From a virus (taxonomy: Duplodnaviria > Caudoviricetes): DNA of 24,799 bases. The stretch is taken from positions 1 to 24,799 of the IMG/VR virus record IMGVR_UViG_3300023173_000970. One strand, given 5' to 3'. This document shows positions 4,957 to 22,636 of this stretch, piece by piece. The translations under genes were made by a program, and so were the position numbers. The notes beneath the pieces were generated by a model. That model ran no database searches and was not told where the DNA came from. It saw only the letters and a list, made by a program, of their open reading frames with translations. Numbering within the stretch: the first letter of the stretch is position 1; each line of letters opens with the position of its first letter.

Positions 4957-4972
4957 ACTGATCTCCTTTCAG

Positions 4973-5026
4973 AGGCTCATCAGCACCGTCATCAACGGTG
5001 GACACCCCCGAAGGGGTGTTTCGCCT
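4973..5026 (-). ncRNA. type II hammerhead self-cleaving ribozyme; predicted cut after GUC, between 5001 and 5000
   Basis: AGGC-GAAA-CACCCC-UUCG-GGGGUG-UC^-CACCGU-UGAUG-ACGGUG-CUGAUGA-GCCU: full CUGAUGA/GAAA/GUC core with three perfectly paired stems, stem II open. Confidence 0.93.
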
Positions 5027-5780: not shown

Positions 5781-6242
5781 ATGTCCAGAGTGAGTTCGTT
5801 ACTGCGCTCGTTTGATCCGTTCGCTTCCTGCGTCAGCGACGCTGCGATTTTCTACGCGGTGGAGGAGAAGTCCTCCGCATGGTGGGATCGGAACGTTTGG
5901 CATTTTGTTCGGCTTGATGGTTCTGGCTGCGCCATTTGGCGCGGCGCATTGCAGGCCAATCAGAACATTGGCGGTAGGTCTTTATCTCACCCGTTGGTCG
6001 AGTTGAAGGTCGCCGGTTACACATCTTTTATCCCGTTGAGGACGCGCCGGTTGTTGTGGGCGTGGGCGTATGGGTACGAGACGCTGCCCGATGGGAAGCA
6101 GACAGATTTCTCCACCGACGAGGTTATCTCGATGACCTGCTGGAACCACTTGTGCGTGAGCGCACAGCACATGGAGAAGGTTGATCGGACGGAGTTGGGT
6201 TACAAGACATGGGCCAAGGAGACAGGTCAGGTCGCCGGGTAG
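5781..6242 (+). CDS. HNH/His-Cys-box endonuclease-like protein, catalytic motif degenerate (153 aa)
   Basis: GCAIWRGA...RRLLWAWAYG...LPDG...ISMTCWNHLCVSAQHME matches the CWxWxG...HR...HxCxNxxCVNPxHL pattern with substitutions. Confidence 0.7.
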   Translation: MSRVSSLLRSFDPFASCVSDAAIFYAVEEKSSAWWDRNVWHFVRLDGSGCAIWRGALQANQNIGGRSLSHPLVELKVAGYTSFIPLRTRRLLWAWAYGYETLPDGKQTDFSTDEVISMTCWNHLCVSAQHMEKVDRTELGYKTWAKETGQVAG

Positions 6243-8095
6243 TCGGTACTGAGGTTGCGAAGGGTGAACTGCTCGCCCTTATCCGTTCGGGTGAGCGGGT
6301 GCGTGACGCGCTGCGGAAGATCGAGAGGTCTCGTTCCTGGTATCAGGATCAGCGTAGGCGTGACTCCGACTGGGCGGCTTTGTGTGACTTCTCCCGCCAT
6401 AAGCGTCTTGAGTTAGTTGCCTCGAATACTGAGAAGGTCGGGTTCTCCGAGTTCTCCGAGAAGTACCTGGGTGTGAAGGTGTGGCCTCACATGCAGAACG
6501 TGGTCGATCTCATGGAGGGGCGCGACCCAGGGTGGCTGCACCCGAGCATGGTGTACGAGAAGGGCACTTCTGGACTGAGCCGGTTGCTCGTTAACGTCCC
6601 GCCCAATCACGCGAAGTCGATGACCGTGAGTATTAATTACGCGACGTATCGGGTGTGCAAAGACCCGAACATCAACGTGATTATCGTGAGCAAGACTCAA
6701 GATCAGGCTAAGAAGTTCTTGTACGCGATTAAGCAACGGTTGACCCACCCCCGCTACGCGGAGATGCAGGCGGCGTTCGGCCCTACTGACGGGTTCAAGG
6801 CTTCCGCTGATGAGTGGTCTGCTACCCGCGTTTACTTGGGGGGCGACCGGGACAGCGACTCCAAAGACCCAACCATCGAAGCCATCGGCATGGGTGGAAT
6901 GATTTATGGATCGCGTGCGAACCTCATCATCCTCGACGATGTTGTGACGCTAACCAACTCGTCCGATTGGCGTAAGCAGCAAGACTGGATCAGGCAGGAA
7001 GTTGCGTCCCGTCTCCCACCGAGGGGCGGTCAGTTACTTGTTGTTGGTACCCGCGTCGCCTCGATTGACTTGTATAAAGAGTTGCGTAACGCGGAGCATT
7101 ACACGGACGGGAAAGTCCCGTGGAGTTACCTGGCTATGCCAGCCGTGTTGGAGTCCAAGGAAGACCCGAAGGATTGGGTGACCTTGTGGCCTAAGTCCGA
7201 GCAGACACTCATGGAAGATGATGTGCCGGACGAAAATGGAAACTTCGAGCGGTGGAGTGGCGAGCGCCTATCCCAAGTTCGTAACGAGGTCGGGCCGAGT
7301 AAGTGGAGCCTGGTCTATCAAAATCTTGACGTAGCCGAGGACGCGATATTCGATCCCGTCTGCGTAAAGGGTTCCGTGAATGGCATGAGGAGTGTTGGCC
7401 CCCTGTCGTCCGGTGTCGCTGGTCACCCGAAAGACCCTGAAGGCTTCTACCGGGTGGTTGGTATTGATCCAGCGATGAGTGGCGATACGGCTTCCGTCGC
7501 CTATGCCGTAGACCGGAGAAGTGGTAAGCGTTATGTGATGGATGTCGATGTGATGACATCGCCTTCGCCAGCCGCGATCAGGACGCTGATTCGTAATTGG
7601 GCAGAGCGGTACAGACCGCAGACTATTGTTGTGGAGTCCAATGCGTTTCAGTTGTTTCTGACTCAGGACGAGGAAATCAGATCGTTCCTGGCAAGCAAGG
7701 GAATCTCTTACCGGCCCCATCACACAGGCTCAAACAAGCAAGACCCTGAGTTCGGTGTGGCCTCCCTCGCTCCCCTGTTTGGTTCAAAGACGACGCGAGA
7801 AGGTCAACTAACCACGAAGCACGCTGGCGACAATCTCATCGAGTTGCCTGCCACTACAAATGAAAACGTCAGGAAACTGGTCGAGCAACTAATCACCTGG
7901 CAGGCGGGGGTTCCCCCGAAGAAACTGAAGCAAGACGCTGTGATGGCTTTATGGTTCGCCGAACTTGTTGCTCGTGAGCAGTTGTTCCGCATCAACAGCA
8001 ACTACCAAACAAATTTCATGTCTACTGAGTTCGTTACCAGGGGCGATAGAAGCGCCCAGTTCACGGTAAACCTCAATGATGTCATTTCCGTATAG
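6209..8095 (+). CDS. terL: terminase large subunit with N-terminal HTH-like extension (628 aa)
   Basis: Walker A VPPNHAKS, Walker B LIILDD, motif III VGTR, nuclease GIDPA...VESN...QDAVMA; upstream of the portal. Confidence 0.95.
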   Translation: MGQGDRSGRRVVGTEVAKGELLALIRSGERVRDALRKIERSRSWYQDQRRRDSDWAALCDFSRHKRLELVASNTEKVGFSEFSEKYLGVKVWPHMQNVVDLMEGRDPGWLHPSMVYEKGTSGLSRLLVNVPPNHAKSMTVSINYATYRVCKDPNINVIIVSKTQDQAKKFLYAIKQRLTHPRYAEMQAAFGPTDGFKASADEWSATRVYLGGDRDSDSKDPTIEAIGMGGMIYGSRANLIILDDVVTLTNSSDWRKQQDWIRQEVASRLPPRGGQLLVVGTRVASIDLYKELRNAEHYTDGKVPWSYLAMPAVLESKEDPKDWVTLWPKSEQTLMEDDVPDENGNFERWSGERLSQVRNEVGPSKWSLVYQNLDVAEDAIFDPVCVKGSVNGMRSVGPLSSGVAGHPKDPEGFYRVVGIDPAMSGDTASVAYAVDRRSGKRYVMDVDVMTSPSPAAIRTLIRNWAERYRPQTIVVESNAFQLFLTQDEEIRSFLASKGISYRPHHTGSNKQDPEFGVASLAPLFGSKTTREGQLTTKHAGDNLIELPATTNENVRKLVEQLITWQAGVPPKKLKQDAVMALWFAELVAREQLFRINSNYQTNFMSTEFVTRGDRSAQFTVNLNDVISV

Positions 8096-8103
8096 AAGGT
8101 TGT

Positions 8104-9852
8104 ATGGCGACGTATAACGAGCGTTTCGAGCAGATTCGTATGCGCTTCTCTGAGCGCGACAAAAAAATGAGCATGGTTGCCGAGGCGCGTAACGGGAACC
8201 TGGGATCGGTCTACCCCTCCCTGTTCCCCGAGGGCCAATGGTCCCAGCCCATCGTCGCCAACATGATCGACATTGTTGCTAAAGACTTGTCCGAGCAGAT
8301 CGGTGTTCTCCCCACTATCTCCGCTTCCGGTGACTCAGCCCTCGATGAGAGTGCTCGAACGAAAGCCGACAAGCGCACGAAGATAGCGAACTACTACCTC
8401 GCCAAGTCGAAGATGAGTAGCGAGATTATTCGCGCCGCTGACCAACTGATTACCTTCGGTTTCGTTCCCCTGCGCGTGGAGCCAAACTTCAAGGACGGTG
8501 CTCCCCACATCAGCGTCGAGCACTCGATGGGCACCTACTGGGATCAAGACCGCTTCGGTGAGATGCGCGTCTTCTGCAACAGTTTCCGCAGGAAGGTCGG
8601 CGATCTAGCCGCCATGTTCCCCGAACTGGCAGACAAGATCCGCTCGTCCCGCCGCGACGACAACTCCTACATCAACGTTATCCGTTGGACAACCCCAGAC
8701 GAGATCGTCATGTTCACGGAAACCGATGTAGTGCTGACTCGTCAGGAAAACATGATGGGTGTCATCCCCGTTGCCTTGGCGAAGCGACCCACGTTCGACG
8801 GAGGGGTATCTGGTCAATTTGACGACGTTCTGCCCGTGTATGCAGCAAAGGCACGGCTGGCGCTACTCATGTTGGAGGCCACTCAGAAGAGTGTTGAGGC
8901 TCCACTAGCAATCCCGCAGGACGTTACCCAGTTGAACGTGGGGCCGGATTCGGTCATCCGAAGCAACACGCCAGAGAAGATCCGGCGCGTAAGCCTGGAT
9001 GTACCGCCTTACTCGTTCGCAGAGAACAACATTCTGAGCGACGAGTTGAAGTACGGAACTCGATTCCCCGAGTCACGAGCCGGTCAAGCCGACGGATCTA
9101 TCGTCACAGGTCAGGGCGTGAAGGCTCTACAGGCCGCGTTTGACCAGCAAGTCAAGGTCTCGCAAGCCATCCTGGGTGAAGCATTGGGTGAGGCGATCAG
9201 CCTTTCCATGCGCTGCGATGAGGTTTACTTCAACAATCGCGTCAACCAAGTTTCAGGCAAGGTCAACGGAGTACCGTTCAGCCTCAAGTACACGCCGCGC
9301 ACCGACATTCAGGGCAACTACGGCGTGAACGTTGACTACGGGCTTCTCGCTGGCCTCGATCCCAACCGTGCTCTAGTTTTCGCGCTACAGGCGCGGGGCG
9401 ACAAGTTGATCTCACGATCCTTCACTCGCCGACATCTACCTATCCAGATCAACCCATCCGAAGAAGAGCGTGCGGTTGATATGGAGGACATGCGTGACTC
9501 TTTGAAGCAAAGCATTCAGGCTCTCGCTTCAGCGATTCCCGCTTTGGCTACCCAGGGTCAAGACCCCATGAAGGTTGTCAACTCTCTTGCGACCGTGATT
9601 GACGAGCGCAAGAAGGGAACGCCAATCGAAGAAGCGGTGAAGCAAGCGTTTGAGCCGCCCAAAACTGAACAGCAAGAACAGCAACAACCCCGAGAAGAAC
9701 AGATTCCAGGGCTACCAGAAAACACAGCCATGCCGGGTGCGGAAGTCCAGCAGCCGCAGGCACCGATGTCTATGCAGAACCTTCTTGCAGGACTTTCCGG
9801 TTCGGGTAGCCCAGTTCTTAAGGGAAACATTCAGCGACAAATTCCAGCGTAG
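8104..9852 (+). CDS. portal protein (582 aa)
   Basis: Directly after terL; size; helical composition; Q/P-rich C-terminal tail typical of podovirus-type portals. Confidence 0.85.
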   Translation: MATYNERFEQIRMRFSERDKKMSMVAEARNGNLGSVYPSLFPEGQWSQPIVANMIDIVAKDLSEQIGVLPTISASGDSALDESARTKADKRTKIANYYLAKSKMSSEIIRAADQLITFGFVPLRVEPNFKDGAPHISVEHSMGTYWDQDRFGEMRVFCNSFRRKVGDLAAMFPELADKIRSSRRDDNSYINVIRWTTPDEIVMFTETDVVLTRQENMMGVIPVALAKRPTFDGGVSGQFDDVLPVYAAKARLALLMLEATQKSVEAPLAIPQDVTQLNVGPDSVIRSNTPEKIRRVSLDVPPYSFAENNILSDELKYGTRFPESRAGQADGSIVTGQGVKALQAAFDQQVKVSQAILGEALGEAISLSMRCDEVYFNNRVNQVSGKVNGVPFSLKYTPRTDIQGNYGVNVDYGLLAGLDPNRALVFALQARGDKLISRSFTRRHLPIQINPSEEERAVDMEDMRDSLKQSIQALASAIPALATQGQDPMKVVNSLATVIDERKKGTPIEEAVKQAFEPPKTEQQEQQQPREEQIPGLPENTAMPGAEVQQPQAPMSMQNLLAGLSGSGSPVLKGNIQRQIPA

Positions 9853-10263: not shown

Positions 10264-12459
10264 ATGGCTAAGAGAAAATTTGGTGAGCCGCCAGGTCAAA
10301 CCCGAACGAAGAGGCAAACCAAGAAAAAGGGAAACCGCTACTCGAAGTTCGGATTAGGTCCGGCTTTTGTGGGGGATGTCGCTAAGGGACTCGGTGAAGA
10401 CCTAGTAAGTATGGGTAAGACCGCGTTCGATCCGCGCCTGCCATTCATGCGGGGGAAGGACGCTGAGAAGGCGAAGCGAGACGCTGCCCTTCTAGGGATG
10501 ACCGTTATCCCTGGTGGCAAACTCATAAAGCCGATTGCCAAGGCAGCGAAGACCGCGAAGAAGACCACGAAAACTCCTGGCACTTCCACCGTCAAGAAGA
10601 CGACGAAGAAGGCAGCCGAGAAAAAGGCAGCGGCTAAGAAGACAACCAAGAAGACCACGGCTAAGAAGACCCCTACTCTCCAACTTAGGAAAGTTCCCCC
10701 GAACTTTAAGAATCTTCCGCGCCCCAAGTCGGTCAAGCCCGGTGCTCCCAAGAAGCCCCAGTTTATGATTGATAAGCAACGGGCGGCAGACCTTAAGAAA
10801 CTTGGTGACACGGGTAAGCGTGGTCGTCCACAGCCTAAGCCCAAAGATTTAAAGACAGACGCTCCTGGTGGTTCGACCAGCCCAGGGTTCACAAAAAAGC
10901 GTTCTCCTAAGTACGAGCCTGAGCCGACAACGGCTCGACCCGTTTCACCGGCTAAGAGCGGTGAGGCTCGCACTACCCCGATGAGCACCAAAGAGGTAGA
11001 GGACACTCTTGGTAAGTTGGGATTCAAGCGAAGCGAGACTGGACTCGAAGGCGCGTACAAGCGTTACAAGAGCAAAGGTCTTGACAAACCCAAGACCCGC
11101 ACAAAAGGTGTAACAAAGAAGACCTCCGCTCAGCGCGAGGCTTCGGAAGCACAGGTCGAGCGCAGGAAGAAGGCTGGTGGCAGTCAGGCATTAAAGGACG
11201 CGATCAGGAACCCGAAACTTGGTGGTGATGTTTCCATCGCCAAGATGTCTCCTGCTGAACTCAAGAAGGCTTTGTCTAACCCAAGAAGTTCTGAGTCTCG
11301 CCTAATGAAGACTCTTGAGAAGCGAGCCAGGCGCGGGAATCTGCGCGAAGGTGAGATGCAGGTTCTCAACCGGCTTCGGGATAACGCTCCGAAGGCAAGC
11401 AATCAAAGGCAAACCGAAGGCTTGATGCGAGATGGCATTCGATCCGTCGGTCAAGGTCAGGCAGAAGGTGGCTCTAAGGCTGGATTCGTAAACCCGCCGC
11501 GTAACGTCAAGGCCAGTAATCCGAAGTGGCGAGGCGAAGGCGGCAAAGACGCGCCGAAGGGTCCAGAAGGTAAATCCGGTACAGCCAAGCGTGGCGACAA
11601 GGTAACCGAGAGGGCTAAGGAAGAAGACGGCGTAACCCGCATTAAGGGTAAGGGCGGTCAAGCACGCAGGGTGATCGCACCAAGCACAGATGTTGCTGTT
11701 GCCCGTGGCGGTCCTCGCGGTCGCCGCGTTGGTGGGGGTGCCACATCTGGTCGTAAGCCAATCGCCCTCGGCTCCGGCAGGAGAACGCCAAGCAAAGATG
11801 TAGTTCGTGGCGAAGTAGTCCGTGGAGGTAGAACTAGCGGTGGCAGCAAGGGGCGCACAGCGAAGCCCGTTGATCTCAAGACCAGGCCCGTTGGTGGCGG
11901 TCGTGGAAGTTCCGGTCGCGGCCCTGCTGCTCGTGGTACTGCTGGTCGTGGTGCTGCTCGCGCTGCTATCGGATCTAGTGCTGCAAAAGGCAAGGGCAAG
12001 GGAAAGAAAGCCAGGGACATAACTCCTGTTGCTGCTGCTGTAGGTGCGGGTGGATTTGCCGCAAGCAAGGCAGGCGGCGTAGCCGAGAGGACTGCCCCGA
12101 AGGAATCGGACAAGGACAAGGTAACTCCTCGCCCGAAGAAGCCCACGAGCCAGTTGCGGGATAAGTACGGTCGCAAGATTGATCGCGCCGAGTTCAACCG
12201 ACGCGAGGCTTACCGCAAGTCCCTTGAGGGTATGACCGAAGCGGAGAAGAAGAAGGCTCGCAAGGCCGAGATGAAGCGCCGGGAGGCGTACCGCGCCCGT
12301 AAGGGTAAGGGAGCGAACATCATTACCCGCAACCTTGACCTGAAAGAAGGCGTATCTAGCCGCAAGGTCAACAAGGAAATGAAGGCTGCTGCCGGTAAGG
12401 GTGGCAATCGTCAAGCGGCAATCGACGCTCGAAAGAAGTACCAGAGAAAGAAGAAGTAA
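10264..12459 (+). CDS. very large basic low-complexity protein with histone-H1-like K/A/T tract (731 aa)
   Basis: GAGG SD; KKTTKKAAEKKAAAKKTTKKTTAKK tract; RGG/GR-rich segment; few hydrophobic residues. Confidence 0.85.
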   Translation: MAKRKFGEPPGQTRTKRQTKKKGNRYSKFGLGPAFVGDVAKGLGEDLVSMGKTAFDPRLPFMRGKDAEKAKRDAALLGMTVIPGGKLIKPIAKAAKTAKKTTKTPGTSTVKKTTKKAAEKKAAAKKTTKKTTAKKTPTLQLRKVPPNFKNLPRPKSVKPGAPKKPQFMIDKQRAADLKKLGDTGKRGRPQPKPKDLKTDAPGGSTSPGFTKKRSPKYEPEPTTARPVSPAKSGEARTTPMSTKEVEDTLGKLGFKRSETGLEGAYKRYKSKGLDKPKTRTKGVTKKTSAQREASEAQVERRKKAGGSQALKDAIRNPKLGGDVSIAKMSPAELKKALSNPRSSESRLMKTLEKRARRGNLREGEMQVLNRLRDNAPKASNQRQTEGLMRDGIRSVGQGQAEGGSKAGFVNPPRNVKASNPKWRGEGGKDAPKGPEGKSGTAKRGDKVTERAKEEDGVTRIKGKGGQARRVIAPSTDVAVARGGPRGRRVGGGATSGRKPIALGSGRRTPSKDVVRGEVVRGGRTSGGSKGRTAKPVDLKTRPVGGGRGSSGRGPAARGTAGRGAARAAIGSSAAKGKGKGKKARDITPVAAAVGAGGFAASKAGGVAERTAPKESDKDKVTPRPKKPTSQLRDKYGRKIDRAEFNRREAYRKSLEGMTEAEKKKARKAEMKRREAYRARKGKGANIITRNLDLKEGVSSRKVNKEMKAAAGKGGNRQAAIDARKKYQRKKK

Positions 12460-19708: not shown

Positions 19709-20917
19709 ATGGTTGATATCAACAGAATTGACCTAGCCGCCCTTCAACAACTGCAAGCCGATCTGGATCGCCAGACGAGCACTCCGCAGGGGCGAAATGA
19801 ACTTGACTCATTCCTTGCGGCGAACTCATCGGGGTATTACCAGAGTGTTCAGGAGGCGATACCCCAGCCACCGCCACGGCAGAACGACGACCCACCGCCA
19901 GCGCCCACGGTCACAGGCACTTACCAGAAGAGAATCCTTGGCGGCTACCTAGTCACGATGGAGCGCCTGTCAAATGGGACAGAGCGCGAGATTTACCGTG
20001 AGCGTTCTCAGTCTGCCGGTGATGCAGTCAACCTGATGTTCCAGAACCTTGGCCTTGGTCAAGGTCTCATCGACAGTATTAACGCCAGCATCAAGAGTTT
20101 GTACGCTAACTTCCTTGACCCGTCCGAGGCACAGATCTTGAACGAGATCTACACCTCTGACGCTTACAAGCAACGCTTCAAGGGCAATGAGATTATTCGT
20201 CAACGGTTGGCTAATGGTCAAGGTCGCCCAGGCGACCGCATGTTGACACCCGCTCAGTACATCGAGCAGGAACGCCAGTACCGGGAAATCCTGCAATCCG
20301 CTGATATGCCTGGTGGCTTCTACGACTCACCTGATGATTTCACAAATCTGATCGGCAACAGCATCAGCGTTGCTGAGTTCCGCAATCGAGTTGACACGGC
20401 ATACGCGGCGCTCAACGAGGCAGATGACTTCTTGAAGGAGCAGTTATCTACATACTATGGATTGACGACGGGCGAGATGGTTTCGTACTTGTTGGACCCG
20501 GCAAGGGCGACCCCGATTTTGAATCAGAGGCAAACCAACAATCCGTATGGACTGAACTCGTACAGAGAATTGCAGCGGCAGTACGAGACAGCCGAGGTGG
20601 GCGCTGCAAGCGAGCGGCTTGGCGGGAAAGATATATCCAGGGGATTCGCTGAAGAGTTTGTTGATGCTGGCAAGGCTGATAAGGCTGAGCAGGCATTCTC
20701 TACGGCAGTTGCGATGGAAGGCGATGTCACTCGCCTTGGCAAGTTGTACGGCGATGACACGATGAATTATCAGGGTATCGCTCGTGAGGCTGCTTCGTTA
20801 ACTGGTGGCGCTGCCATAGGCAAGCGTCGTCGTAAGTTCGCCAGTAAAGAGCGAGCACAGTTCAAGAAGGAAAGTGCTCTCGGGCGAGGTTCCTTGTCCA
20901 AGAGAACAGACGTTTAA
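19709..20917 (+). CDS. putative internal virion/ejection protein (402 aa)
   Basis: ORF track; helical, basic C-terminus; operon context. Confidence 0.7.
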   Translation: MVDINRIDLAALQQLQADLDRQTSTPQGRNELDSFLAANSSGYYQSVQEAIPQPPPRQNDDPPPAPTVTGTYQKRILGGYLVTMERLSNGTEREIYRERSQSAGDAVNLMFQNLGLGQGLIDSINASIKSLYANFLDPSEAQILNEIYTSDAYKQRFKGNEIIRQRLANGQGRPGDRMLTPAQYIEQERQYREILQSADMPGGFYDSPDDFTNLIGNSISVAEFRNRVDTAYAALNEADDFLKEQLSTYYGLTTGEMVSYLLDPARATPILNQRQTNNPYGLNSYRELQRQYETAEVGAASERLGGKDISRGFAEEFVDAGKADKAEQAFSTAVAMEGDVTRLGKLYGDDTMNYQGIAREAASLTGGAAIGKRRRKFASKERAQFKKESALGRGSLSKRTDV

Positions 20918-20924
20918 TACGTCG

Positions 20925-21005
20925 GGGCATGACAGGTTAGAAGGAAAACGTAAAGCATCGCTCTACAACTTCCTTAACTCCCGTTCGATTCGGGACATGT
21001 CCACC
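20925..21005 (+). ncRNA. minimal tmRNA-like RNA: tRNA(Ala)-like domain only, no tag reading frame
   Basis: Acceptor GGGCAUG/CAUGUCC with G3:U70 and discriminator A; stemless D-loop ACAGGUUAG; helix AAGGAA/UUCCUU capped by a short hairpin; T-arm UCCCG-UUCGAUU-CGGGA. Confidence 0.75.
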
Positions 21006-21009
21006 CATA

Positions 21010-21130
21010 GCAGGATCGGTCGGCCCCTGCGTGAGTAGTAGTCCGATAGTCGCTACAGCCATTCGCGGTAACCCCCTTGACGCGATGTGGGTAGTGCAAC
21101 CCGAAGAAGGGCATACACAGAAAGGGTGTA
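21010..21130 (+). ncRNA. structured 5' leader of the scaffold/capsid genes (pseudoknot plus long hairpin)
   Basis: GCAGG/CCUGC crossed by AUCGG/CCGAU; hairpin CGCUAC..CCA.UCGCG-loop-CGCGA..UGG.GUAGUG with a CCCCCUU loop complementary to AAGGG near the SD. Confidence 0.55.
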
Positions 21131-21133
21131 CCG

Positions 21134-21604
21134 ATGGCCCAATACGAGAATGAATACGATGAAGAGTCGATGTCCGGCTCTGATCTGATTAAGCACCTTC
21201 GCAAGCAGATCAAGGATCTGTCTTCAACGCTCGATGAGCGTGACGATCAACTCGATGAGTTGTACGCGGAGGTTAGGTTCAACGACCTAGCAGCAGCACT
21301 CGAAGAGTCTGGCGTAAGTCCAGCACTTGCACAGTATGTGCCGGATGAGGTTGAGGATATGGATGACCTCTACGACTGGCTTGACGATAACGCTGAGATA
21401 TTCGGCATTGAGGCTGTCGATGACGAAGGACAGGATTATGAAGAGGAGCAATCCTTAATTGATCCGGCAGTCGTTCGTGCCGCAGAAGATATGGCTCGGT
21501 TAACGGACGGTGGGATTGACCCCACCGTTGGCACATCTGTCGAGGACTTGATTAATTCAGCGCAAAGTCCCGAAGAGTTGCAAGCCATTCTACGCGGTCA
21601 GTAA
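21134..21604 (+). CDS. capsid scaffolding protein (156 aa)
   Basis: Acidic, N-terminal coiled coil, immediately upstream of the major capsid gene. Confidence 0.8.
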   Translation: MAQYENEYDEESMSGSDLIKHLRKQIKDLSSTLDERDDQLDELYAEVRFNDLAAALEESGVSPALAQYVPDEVEDMDDLYDWLDDNAEIFGIEAVDDEGQDYEEEQSLIDPAVVRAAEDMARLTDGGIDPTVGTSVEDLINSAQSPEELQAILRGQ

Positions 21605-21637
21605 TCGGTCCCAACGAAAAAGTGAAAGGAGGCGAAG

Positions 21638-22636
21638 ATGGCTAACAACCCAATCGGTACCACGAGTCACACTCATACCGCTGACTCGACCAGTACCACC
21701 ACGATGGGGCACTTGGTTGTCACCGCCTACGACAAATTCGTTGAGATGGCCCTTCGCTCGGAACCCATGTTCCGTAAATTCGCCGATAAGAAGCCGGTTG
21801 ATGTTACATCGCCGGGTTCTACTGTCGTTTTCCAACTGCATAACGACATTGCGCGGGTTACTGCGGCTCTCAACGAGACTCAGGACATTACCTCTACTGC
21901 GATGGAGAACACCAACAAGGTTGCTGTTACCGTCAATGAATATGGTAATGCCGTAACGACCACGGAGCGTTTGTCTTTGGAGGCTATCTCCAAGGTGGAC
22001 CCAGCCGTGGCCGACATACTCGCGTTTAATCAACGCGACAGCCTTGACGCTCTGGTGTGGGCAGTCATGGTTGGTGCTCAGACAGCATTCACCAACTCTG
22101 CCGGGGCTTCAAGTACCCCGGCTCTGCCTGGTGAGAACCTGTCTGGCGGCACGCCTGGAACCATCACCTCGGCTTCCATTCGGAAGGCGGTCAGCAAGTT
22201 GCGCGGCGCTAACGTCCAGCCCCGCGAAGGTTCCTACTTCATGGGCTTCATGCACCCAGATGTTTCTTTCGATCTTCGGAGCGAAGCAAACACCCAGGGT
22301 AATGACCAATGGCGTGCGCCTCACATCTACAACGACACCGGAACCGGAGCGATCTGGGACGGCGAAGTTGGAGTGTATGAGGGAGTCAAGTGGGTAGAGA
22401 CTCCGCGTGCAGAATCCCAGTCGGGTTCTGGCGCGAACAAGATCTACGACACCTTGATTATCGGCAAGCAGGCGCTTGTCGAAGCGGTTCAGTACGAACC
22501 GAAGACGATTGTAGCGCCGGACGTTGACAAGTTGCGTCGTTTCCGCACGGTGGGCTGGAAAGCCTTCCTCGGCTGGAACACGTTCCGCAACGAAGCGCGT
22601 TACAGCATCAAGGTCAAGAGCAGCATCGCTGCCTAG
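21638..22636 (+). CDS. major capsid protein (HK97 fold, N4-gp56-like; 332 aa)
   Basis: AAAGGAGG SD; VTVNEYGNAV, MHPDVSFDLR, GEVGVYEGVKWVE, DKLRRFRTVGWK motifs; follows the scaffold. Confidence 0.92.
   Translation: MANNPIGTTSHTHTADSTSTTTMGHLVVTAYDKFVEMALRSEPMFRKFADKKPVDVTSPGSTVVFQLHNDIARVTAALNETQDITSTAMENTNKVAVTVNEYGNAVTTTERLSLEAISKVDPAVADILAFNQRDSLDALVWAVMVGAQTAFTNSAGASSTPALPGENLSGGTPGTITSASIRKAVSKLRGANVQPREGSYFMGFMHPDVSFDLRSEANTQGNDQWRAPHIYNDTGTGAIWDGEVGVYEGVKWVETPRAESQSGSGANKIYDTLIIGKQALVEAVQYEPKTIVAPDVDKLRRFRTVGWKAFLGWNTFRNEARYSIKVKSSIAA

Follow-up and report, generated by a model that had tools for sequence, protein, structure and literature searches.

What kind of RNA is encoded immediately before the capsid genes of this phage, and what might it do there? 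The window, by which we mean the whole 24,799-nucleotide stretch of DNA analyzed (positions 1–24,799 of IMGVR_UViG_3300023173_000970), is part of a phage genome (Caudoviricetes), and a preliminary description made from its letters had proposed that it encodes a tmRNA-like RNA without the mRNA domain. That proposal is borne out here, in the form of a conserved tag-less tmRNA-like RNA that is not a tRNA. The major capsid protein of the window is 40–43% identical to capsid proteins of Streptomyces Beephvirinae phages. A complete 43.7-kb record that matches the window at the RNA locus (G001) encodes a WhiB protein, so that, from general knowledge of WhiB, the host of the phage is most likely an actinobacterium; G001 also encodes a tyrosine integrase family protein (L520:7282–8244, minus strand), so the phage may be temperate. 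A very lysine-rich 731-aa open reading frame (ORF) with no Pfam or PHROG match follows the portal gene of the window (10264–12459, plus strand). The 24 RNA runs listed with the region comprise 22 from salt marsh and two marine runs.

Anatomy of the RNA and its operon

The features of the locus are as follows.

6209–8095: terminase
8104–9852: portal
19709–20917, plus strand: upstream gene, 402 aa, PHROG 8424, function unknown, with a TAA stop 7 nt before the RNA
20925–21003, plus strand: tag-less tmRNA-like RNA (tRNA-like domain only), 79 nt from G1 to discriminator A73
20925–20931, plus strand: 5′ strand of the acceptor stem, G3 at 20927 (from the sequence and family covariation)
20932–20940, plus strand: stemless 9-nt D-loop with A at position 8, GG at 20935–20936 and the end TAG
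20941–20975, plus strand: variable arm, made of a 6-bp basal helix (20941–20946/20970–20975) and a 23-nt inner hairpin (20947–20969)
20976–20978, plus strand: AAC linker
20979–20995, plus strand: perfect T-arm, 5 bp and a 7-nt loop
20996–21006, plus strand: 3′ strand of the acceptor stem (20996–21002) with U70 at 21000, A73 at 21003, then CCC
21006–21133, plus strand: conserved leader RNA with a pseudoknot, a long hairpin, a small hairpin and a ribosome-binding site
21010–21014/21026–21030 and 21020–21023/21043–21046, plus strand: H-type pseudoknot of the leader
21134–21604, plus strand: 156-aa acidic protein, PHROG 7813, unknown function; probably the scaffold, from its position and size
21638–22636, plus strand: major capsid protein, PHROG 1357

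The two acceptor strands form seven of seven pairs, including G3:U70 (20927:21000), and the tmRNA hallmarks listed in the preliminary description (GGG start, G3:U70, A73, stemless D-loop with GG, AAC linker and T-arm) were all found in place. Its hairpin of about 23 nt is likewise present at 20947–20969, where it ends in a 3-nt loop and a 7-nt anticodon loop is absent; the basal helix beneath it is the likely equivalent of helix 2a. The 3′ tail reads ACCC (21003–21006), as described, and CCA is not encoded. The length of 79 nt given previously holds to A73, and only the end coordinate of 21005 needs correction, as it takes in two C of the tail. The folding z-score of the RNA is −3.0, with equal stability in 1 of 200 shuffles, and the anatomy occurred in none of 300 shuffled windows (base-pair-block shuffles).

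ARAGORN called no gene in the window, and the RNA had no Rfam match either in the window at E ≤ 5 or in 20880–21140 at E ≤ 10; these programs, which the preliminary description had named as checks, thus returned no canonical tRNA or tmRNA. Three known classes were considered and rejected. A canonical tRNA-Ala (RF00005) does not fit an RNA that lacks the D-stem, U8 and an anticodon stem with a 7-nt loop and that ARAGORN does not call. A standard tmRNA (RF00023) gave no match, and merely a 35-nt arm stands in place of the pseudoknot ring and tag frame. A permuted two-piece tmRNA is excluded by the order of the parts, 5′ then 3′ and closed within 79 nt; no alpha, beta or permuted tmRNA model matched in the window, and the same models match L148 and L164.

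A conserved family with alanine identity and an altered elbow

A scan of IMG/VR with a pattern that fixed the D-loop motif, the T-loop, the three outer acceptor pairs and A73 found at least 120 viral loci (about 260 estimated), with 96 distinct sequences among the matches listed. Members were picked by the D-loop pattern, so D-loop conservation within the family is not an independent result. Among the matches listed, the acceptor is paired 7/7 in 95 of the 96 distinct sequences and the T-stem 5/5 in all 96, the acceptor and T-stem occur in 49 distinct frames, and the eight pairs left free by the pattern are paired in 99.5% of cells, compared with 62% after column shuffling. In an alignment of 24 members, none of them syntenic with the window, 100% of cells are paired, compared with 44–59% in slid controls, and 8 of 12 pairs show two-sided (compensatory) change.

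As a guard against circularity, a second scan was run with no acceptor letter in the pattern, giving 120 loci and 105 distinct sequences, of which 73 have a full 5/5 T-stem and 27 of these 73 close an acceptor; the remaining matches are, by eye, mostly ordinary tRNAs, tmRNA 3′ ends or noise. All 27 closed copies carry G1:C72, G2:C71, G3:U70 and A73. G3:U70 and A73 are the determinants recognized by alanyl-tRNA synthetase (AlaRS) (PMC3968760), and their retention in 27 of 27 copies while neighboring pairs vary with compensation argues that the alanine marks are under selection. The search of phage contigs for homologs that the preliminary description had suggested therefore uncovers a large conserved phage family, and its alternative of a decayed pseudogene gives way to a conserved, covarying RNA, as seen in the 27 of 27 alanine marks, the excess of pairing (99.5% vs. 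62%) and the compensatory change at 8 of 12 pairs.

BLASTN against 50,697 annotated phage records returned chance-level fragments only. A scan of 185,579 cellular genomes gave 29 matches, only six distinct ones of which are closed; most others resemble 3′ ends of full tmRNAs, as Rfam confirms for four. Two of 401 host-phylum genomes were matched, by one confirmed tmRNA 3′ end and one sequence resembling it; the 401 include G070 and G087, both without a match. A Saccharibacteria bin (G067) holds a closed mini copy on a 169-kb contig (L193:2501–2578; RF00023, 67.6 bits) and, on another contig, a full tmRNA.

Genomic context was counted over 66 distinct long-flank loci, after 54 of 120 had been dropped (40 with short flanks, L280–L319, and 14 duplicates). 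Among the matches listed, 76 of 95 members have A at position 8, where 15 of the 22 tRNAs of Streptomyces phage Immanuel3 have T; each arm forms a single hairpin, and the loop is 7 nt long in just 3 of the 95; 36 of the 95 acceptor strands exactly match an acceptor from a sampled tmRNA of the host phylum; ARAGORN calls the family RNA in 1 of 66 loci; and just 9 of the 66 have another tRNA no more than 150 nt away. CCA is encoded in 31 of 95 members among the matches listed and is absent from 9 of 25 correctly parsed host-phylum tmRNAs, so its absence from the window RNA is no obstacle.

A covariance model (R1) was built from the 24 members not syntenic with the window, the RNA of the window being left out. 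R1 matched the window at exactly 20925–21003 with 51.2 bits; the RNA of mycobacteriophage DS6A scored 46.9 bits, 3′ ends of full tmRNAs 25–38 bits and the best true tRNA, a tRNA-Ala of Streptomyces relatives, 28.8 bits, the E-values being rough.

The elbow sets the window RNA apart from the tmRNAs of its host phylum, for which 28 loci were examined (L540 and L546 left out). Host-phylum tmRNAs have D-loops of 11–13 nt that end in GGNWTCGA in 27 of 27 parsed cases, and the junction is GGAC in all 25 with a parsed 3′ end; the window RNA has the D-loop end GGTTAG and the junction TAAC, as against TCGAC and GGAC. The TCGAC motif is kept in DS6A and in a related viral locus, L446. By cryo-EM, SmpB makes contacts at A15, U17, C18, G19 and A334 (PMC8363625), of which plausibly only the equivalents of G19 and A334 are kept in the window RNA. 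Because TCGAC, the D-loop motif with which SmpB makes contact, is missing from the window RNA, binding is not assured, though it is plausible; and because the elbow is noncanonical, the window RNA is a variant of the DS6A kind rather than a plain member. A search of 38 carrier phages found no phage SmpB; 10 of 14 controls gave a positive result. The elbow variants that occupy one slot (L446, L017 and the window) form a natural series in which sequence rules for SmpB binding are directly testable.

A refilled slot before the capsid genes and the leader behind it

Eighty viral loci were found by means of the downstream protein. The slot holds a short-D-loop RNA in 21, an RNA with a longer D-loop in two, a minihelix remnant in two and nothing in 55, so the RNA is dispensable. 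In a tree of 30 downstream proteins, L017/L018 and L446 are the closest relatives of the window on starred branches. L446 retains at this slot the full TCGAC D-loop. L017 matches RF00023 with 35.6 bits, below the 47-bit threshold, and about 35 bits is not proof alone, as tRNA-sized matches of 33–44 bits occur in bacterial genomes. L446:1293–1371 and L017:1887–1967 have the acceptor and inner arm in common and differ in their D-loops, one of which is canonical. The slot thus appears to have been refilled, in one direction or the other, with different tag-less RNAs. In Immanuel3 it is occupied by 22 tRNAs. L022, L024 (about 2320–2366) and L451 carry an acceptor-plus-T-arm minihelix without the variable arm, with A3:U70 in two of the three; R1 gives no match to the minihelix in L022.

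The variable arm is exchanged in L005/L006 relative to the window: L005, whose downstream protein is 97% identical to that of the window, has the same acceptor, T-arm and leader and another arm. L019 and L448 have identical downstream proteins and different arms. A near-identical 40-nt inner arm is present in L009, L019, L229 and L300, with differing D-loops and flanks, and this suggests that the arm is a portable cassette.

Among the matches listed, the RNA starts 5–8 nt past a same-strand stop codon in 15 of 66 loci, and a capsid module lies directly downstream in 16 of 66, with one further locus placed after a capsid gene; the neighbors of the rest are terminase, DNA-metabolism or unknown genes (5 of 155 neighbor ORFs were left out of the count). 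The 16 capsid-adjacent loci represent two lineages, not 16 events: ten, the window included, precede PHROG 7813/1357, and six lie between the head protease PHROG 80 and the unrelated capsid PHROG 10. At L201, L212, L245, L258, L266 and L271 the RNA begins 5–6 nt past the head-maturation protease gene, just before the unrelated major capsid gene.

Behind the mini-RNA, 92.7% of cells in the leader are paired, compared with 70.2% after shuffling, with two-sided change at 15 of 17 pairs, and its pseudoknot helix is paired in 22 of 22 sequences. The leader is an RNA separate from the mini-RNA and is kept in relatives that lack it, from close relatives to GenBank record L016. Rfam gave no ribozyme or riboswitch match on the leader, and its order of helices, judged by eye, suits neither an HDV-like nor a pistol ribozyme. 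A C-rich loop in the leader could pair with the ribosome-binding site. No sigma-70 promoter was found on the plus strand in 20500–21700; the phage encodes both WhiB and a sigma-region-4 protein, so a promoter of another type is possible. The RNA evidence comes from 8 of the 24 listed runs, as contigs from which ends, strand and level are unreadable. In five of these eight metatranscriptomes, contigs start at 21019–21035 without upstream cover, which proves nothing alone, and the runs may come from one campaign; of the remaining three, one has a contig start at 21096 and two cover the element. The starts are a weak hint of a transcript boundary near the element, and because they fall inside the pseudoknot, stalling of reverse transcriptase, or a promoter, would account for them just as well.

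The preliminary description had also seen significance in a co-occurrence with self-cleaving mRNA elements, which is not upheld. The sole self-cleaving element found in the window is a Hammerhead_II at 4967–5026 on the minus strand (43.9 bits, Rfam). It is intergenic, between two small early-strand ORFs, and starts immediately past a stop codon; cleavage there would therefore not give rise to a nonstop mRNA. With the Hammerhead_II model, the only one used for co-occurrence, no match was found in 35 other carriers of the RNA, 19 of them at least 90% complete, and among 30 relatives one was above the cut-off (apparently the same phage) and one other gave a 22-bit match; eight of the nine element-bearing relatives among the 30 are fragments.

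Possible roles and the closest known systems

From what is observed directly, namely the fold, conservation, alanine marks and position of the RNA, we infer all the functional steps of our main reading, to which we give a probability of about one-half: the RNA would be excised from the late transcript, alanylated, and would compete with host tmRNA for SmpB, EF-Tu and stalled ribosomes. Transcription with the late operon, suggested because 15 of 66 loci begin 5–8 nt past a stop and no sigma-70 promoter was found, would yield the RNA in capsid-scale amounts. Host RNase P would cut at 20925, and a 3′ nuclease and CCA-adding enzyme would finish the end; tmRNA itself is matured by RNase P and 3′ processing (PMC3968760). 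The same cuts would release the scaffold-capsid message, beginning with its own pseudoknot. Host AlaRS would charge the RNA with alanine, and, there being no tag frame, trans-translation would remain incomplete, so that fewer phage proteins would be tagged and destroyed in the late phase of infection. Competition with host tmRNA is supported because the DS6A form is reported to inhibit host tmRNA, copies in sister lineages are closer to tmRNA and no SmpB was found in the 38 carrier phages; it is weakened because the elbow is altered, RF00023 does not match and 55 of 80 syntenic loci lack the RNA. The altered SmpB-contact elbow makes it the weakest step.

The placement of the RNA would also suit a main role as a tRNA-like signal at which the late transcript is cut in two, the released RNA being a by-product and the scaffold and capsid message being stabilized or translated apart from low-copy upstream genes. 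This would account for the 16 of 66 loci, among the matches listed, that lie directly before a capsid module in two unrelated layouts, for a slot filled by 22 tRNAs in Immanuel3 and by minihelix remnants in L022, L024 and L451, and for the contig starts at 21019–21035 in five of eight runs. However, an RNA cut signal needs neither G3:U70 nor A73, and all 27 closed copies keep both; 50 of the 66 loci, among the matches listed, are not directly before a recognized capsid module, the 16 that are represent two lineages, and 55 of 80 relatives have the same operon without the RNA. We therefore regard it as unlikely to be the main role, and the roles of decoy and processing signal can coexist. Instead of competing through SmpB, the RNA might act independently of it, as a decoy for defenses or enzymes that read tRNA acceptor ends; without an anticodon loop, it would escape cleavage at that site. 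Escape from recognition would suit the altered elbow and the exchangeable arm, and there are defense toxins that modify tRNA CCA ends and are triggered by a major capsid protein (PMC9712102, 10.1101/2024.07.05.602228); the window RNA sits in the capsid operon. However, strict alanine identity and a tmRNA-type frame would be superfluous for a general decoy. We know of no tRNA-CCA-modifying defense toxin for the host, and consider this role improbable.

The RNA might also, together with host SmpB, accept the stalled chain, add alanine and free the ribosome without a destruction mark. SmpB and a fragment of the tRNA-like domain support template-free polyalanine synthesis in vitro (PMC3929946), and mitochondrial and some plastid tmRNAs are kept without a tag frame (PMC11915505). 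Such tag-free rescue is hardly probable here, however: the RNA encodes neither a stop codon nor a release step, the DS6A form is reported to be an inhibitor (PMC4131195, PMC11915505), the element proposed to supply cleaved messages does not accompany the RNA, the hammerhead is intergenic and the elbow is altered. That the window RNA is what is left of a decayed tRNA-Ala or tmRNA and serves no function is the most improbable reading of all. In Streptomyces relatives the slot does hold an array of tRNAs, including the tRNA-Ala with 28.8 bits on R1, and remnants and losses occur there; but 95 of 96 acceptors pair 7/7, 96 of 96 T-stems 5/5, compensatory changes and 49 frames are present (among the matches listed), and near-identical phages carry different arms on an unchanged frame. 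For the family as a whole, a functionless remnant is refuted by the 27 of 27 alanine marks and the covariation.

If competition with host tmRNA is correct and the family are trans-translation inhibitors, RNA-based interference with ribosome rescue would be a common phage strategy; if the placement before capsid genes reflects processing, host tRNA enzymes would be used to cut phage late messages. More speculatively, and against the odds, the tRNA-like domain of tmRNA may be a portable two-purpose phage cassette, inserted independently before capsid genes in at least two unrelated lineages: excision by tRNA enzymes would decide where the capsid message has its 5′ end; the alanine-charged RNA, with its rebuilt elbow and exchangeable arm, would act on host translation or tRNA-targeting defenses outside the normal rules of SmpB.

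Among known systems, the window RNA shares with standard SsrA tmRNA (RF00023) the acceptor and T-arm frame, alanine identity, A at position 8, a stemless D-loop with GG and AC before the T-stem. It differs in lacking the pseudoknot ring, resume codon and tag frame, in its length (79 vs. about 350 nt) and in its altered D-loop and junction motifs. Organellar tmRNAs without a coding sequence (mitochondrial, and in Mallomonadaceae plastids) likewise have no tag frame (PMC11915505) and, compared by description, are the only tmRNA of their organelle, whereas the window RNA is a phage passenger beside the host tmRNA. The tRNA array of Immanuel3 (Streptomyces Beephvirinae) shares the slot before scaffold-like and capsid genes and mostly does not encode CCA, but its tRNAs have anticodon arms and yield 22 ARAGORN calls, whereas the window RNA is not called. 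In three of them (Trp, Ala and Arg; L015:6692–6763, 7167–7235 and 8195–8262) the D-arms appear much reduced.

Our literature search found no report on a phage mini-tmRNA, phage-encoded tmRNA-like RNA or tRNA-like RNA since 2018. The tag-less tmRNA as a type is nevertheless already known from DS6A, whose RNA is listed as "TLD only" (tmID 11587; PMC4131195). A molecule similar to it is reported to inhibit tmRNA strongly, perhaps through titration of SmpB (PMC4131195), and the DS6A form to inhibit endogenous tmRNA in E. coli (PMC11915505). Some family members may already be among the 79 phage sequences of PMC11915505. In that 2025 database, "standard, no CDS" tmRNAs account for 9 of 97,179 sequences; against these nine curated tag-less forms stand at least 95 distinct short-D-loop copies from a scan of one viral collection. 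The DS6A RNA (JN698994.1, L170:979–1061) and the window RNA both come from actinobacterial phages and share a closed tRNA-like domain of about 80 nt, G3:U70, A73, a stemless D-loop, a short hairpin arm, a 3-nt linker and the absence of an encoded CCA, and both score 47–51 bits on R1. By eye, 27 of 95 family arms (among the matches listed) have an A-rich internal loop and then a C-rich mini-stem, like the DS6A arm. The two RNAs differ in the D-loop (13 nt ending in TCGAC in DS6A, 9 nt ending in TAG in the window), in the match to RF00023 (34.7 bits for DS6A, no Rfam match for the window) and in their position, the DS6A gene lying between gp33 and the DNA polymerase III gene and the window RNA in the capsid operon. 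Three things are new here relative to DS6A: the elbow is altered, the slot has been refilled, and the RNA recurs ahead of capsid genes.
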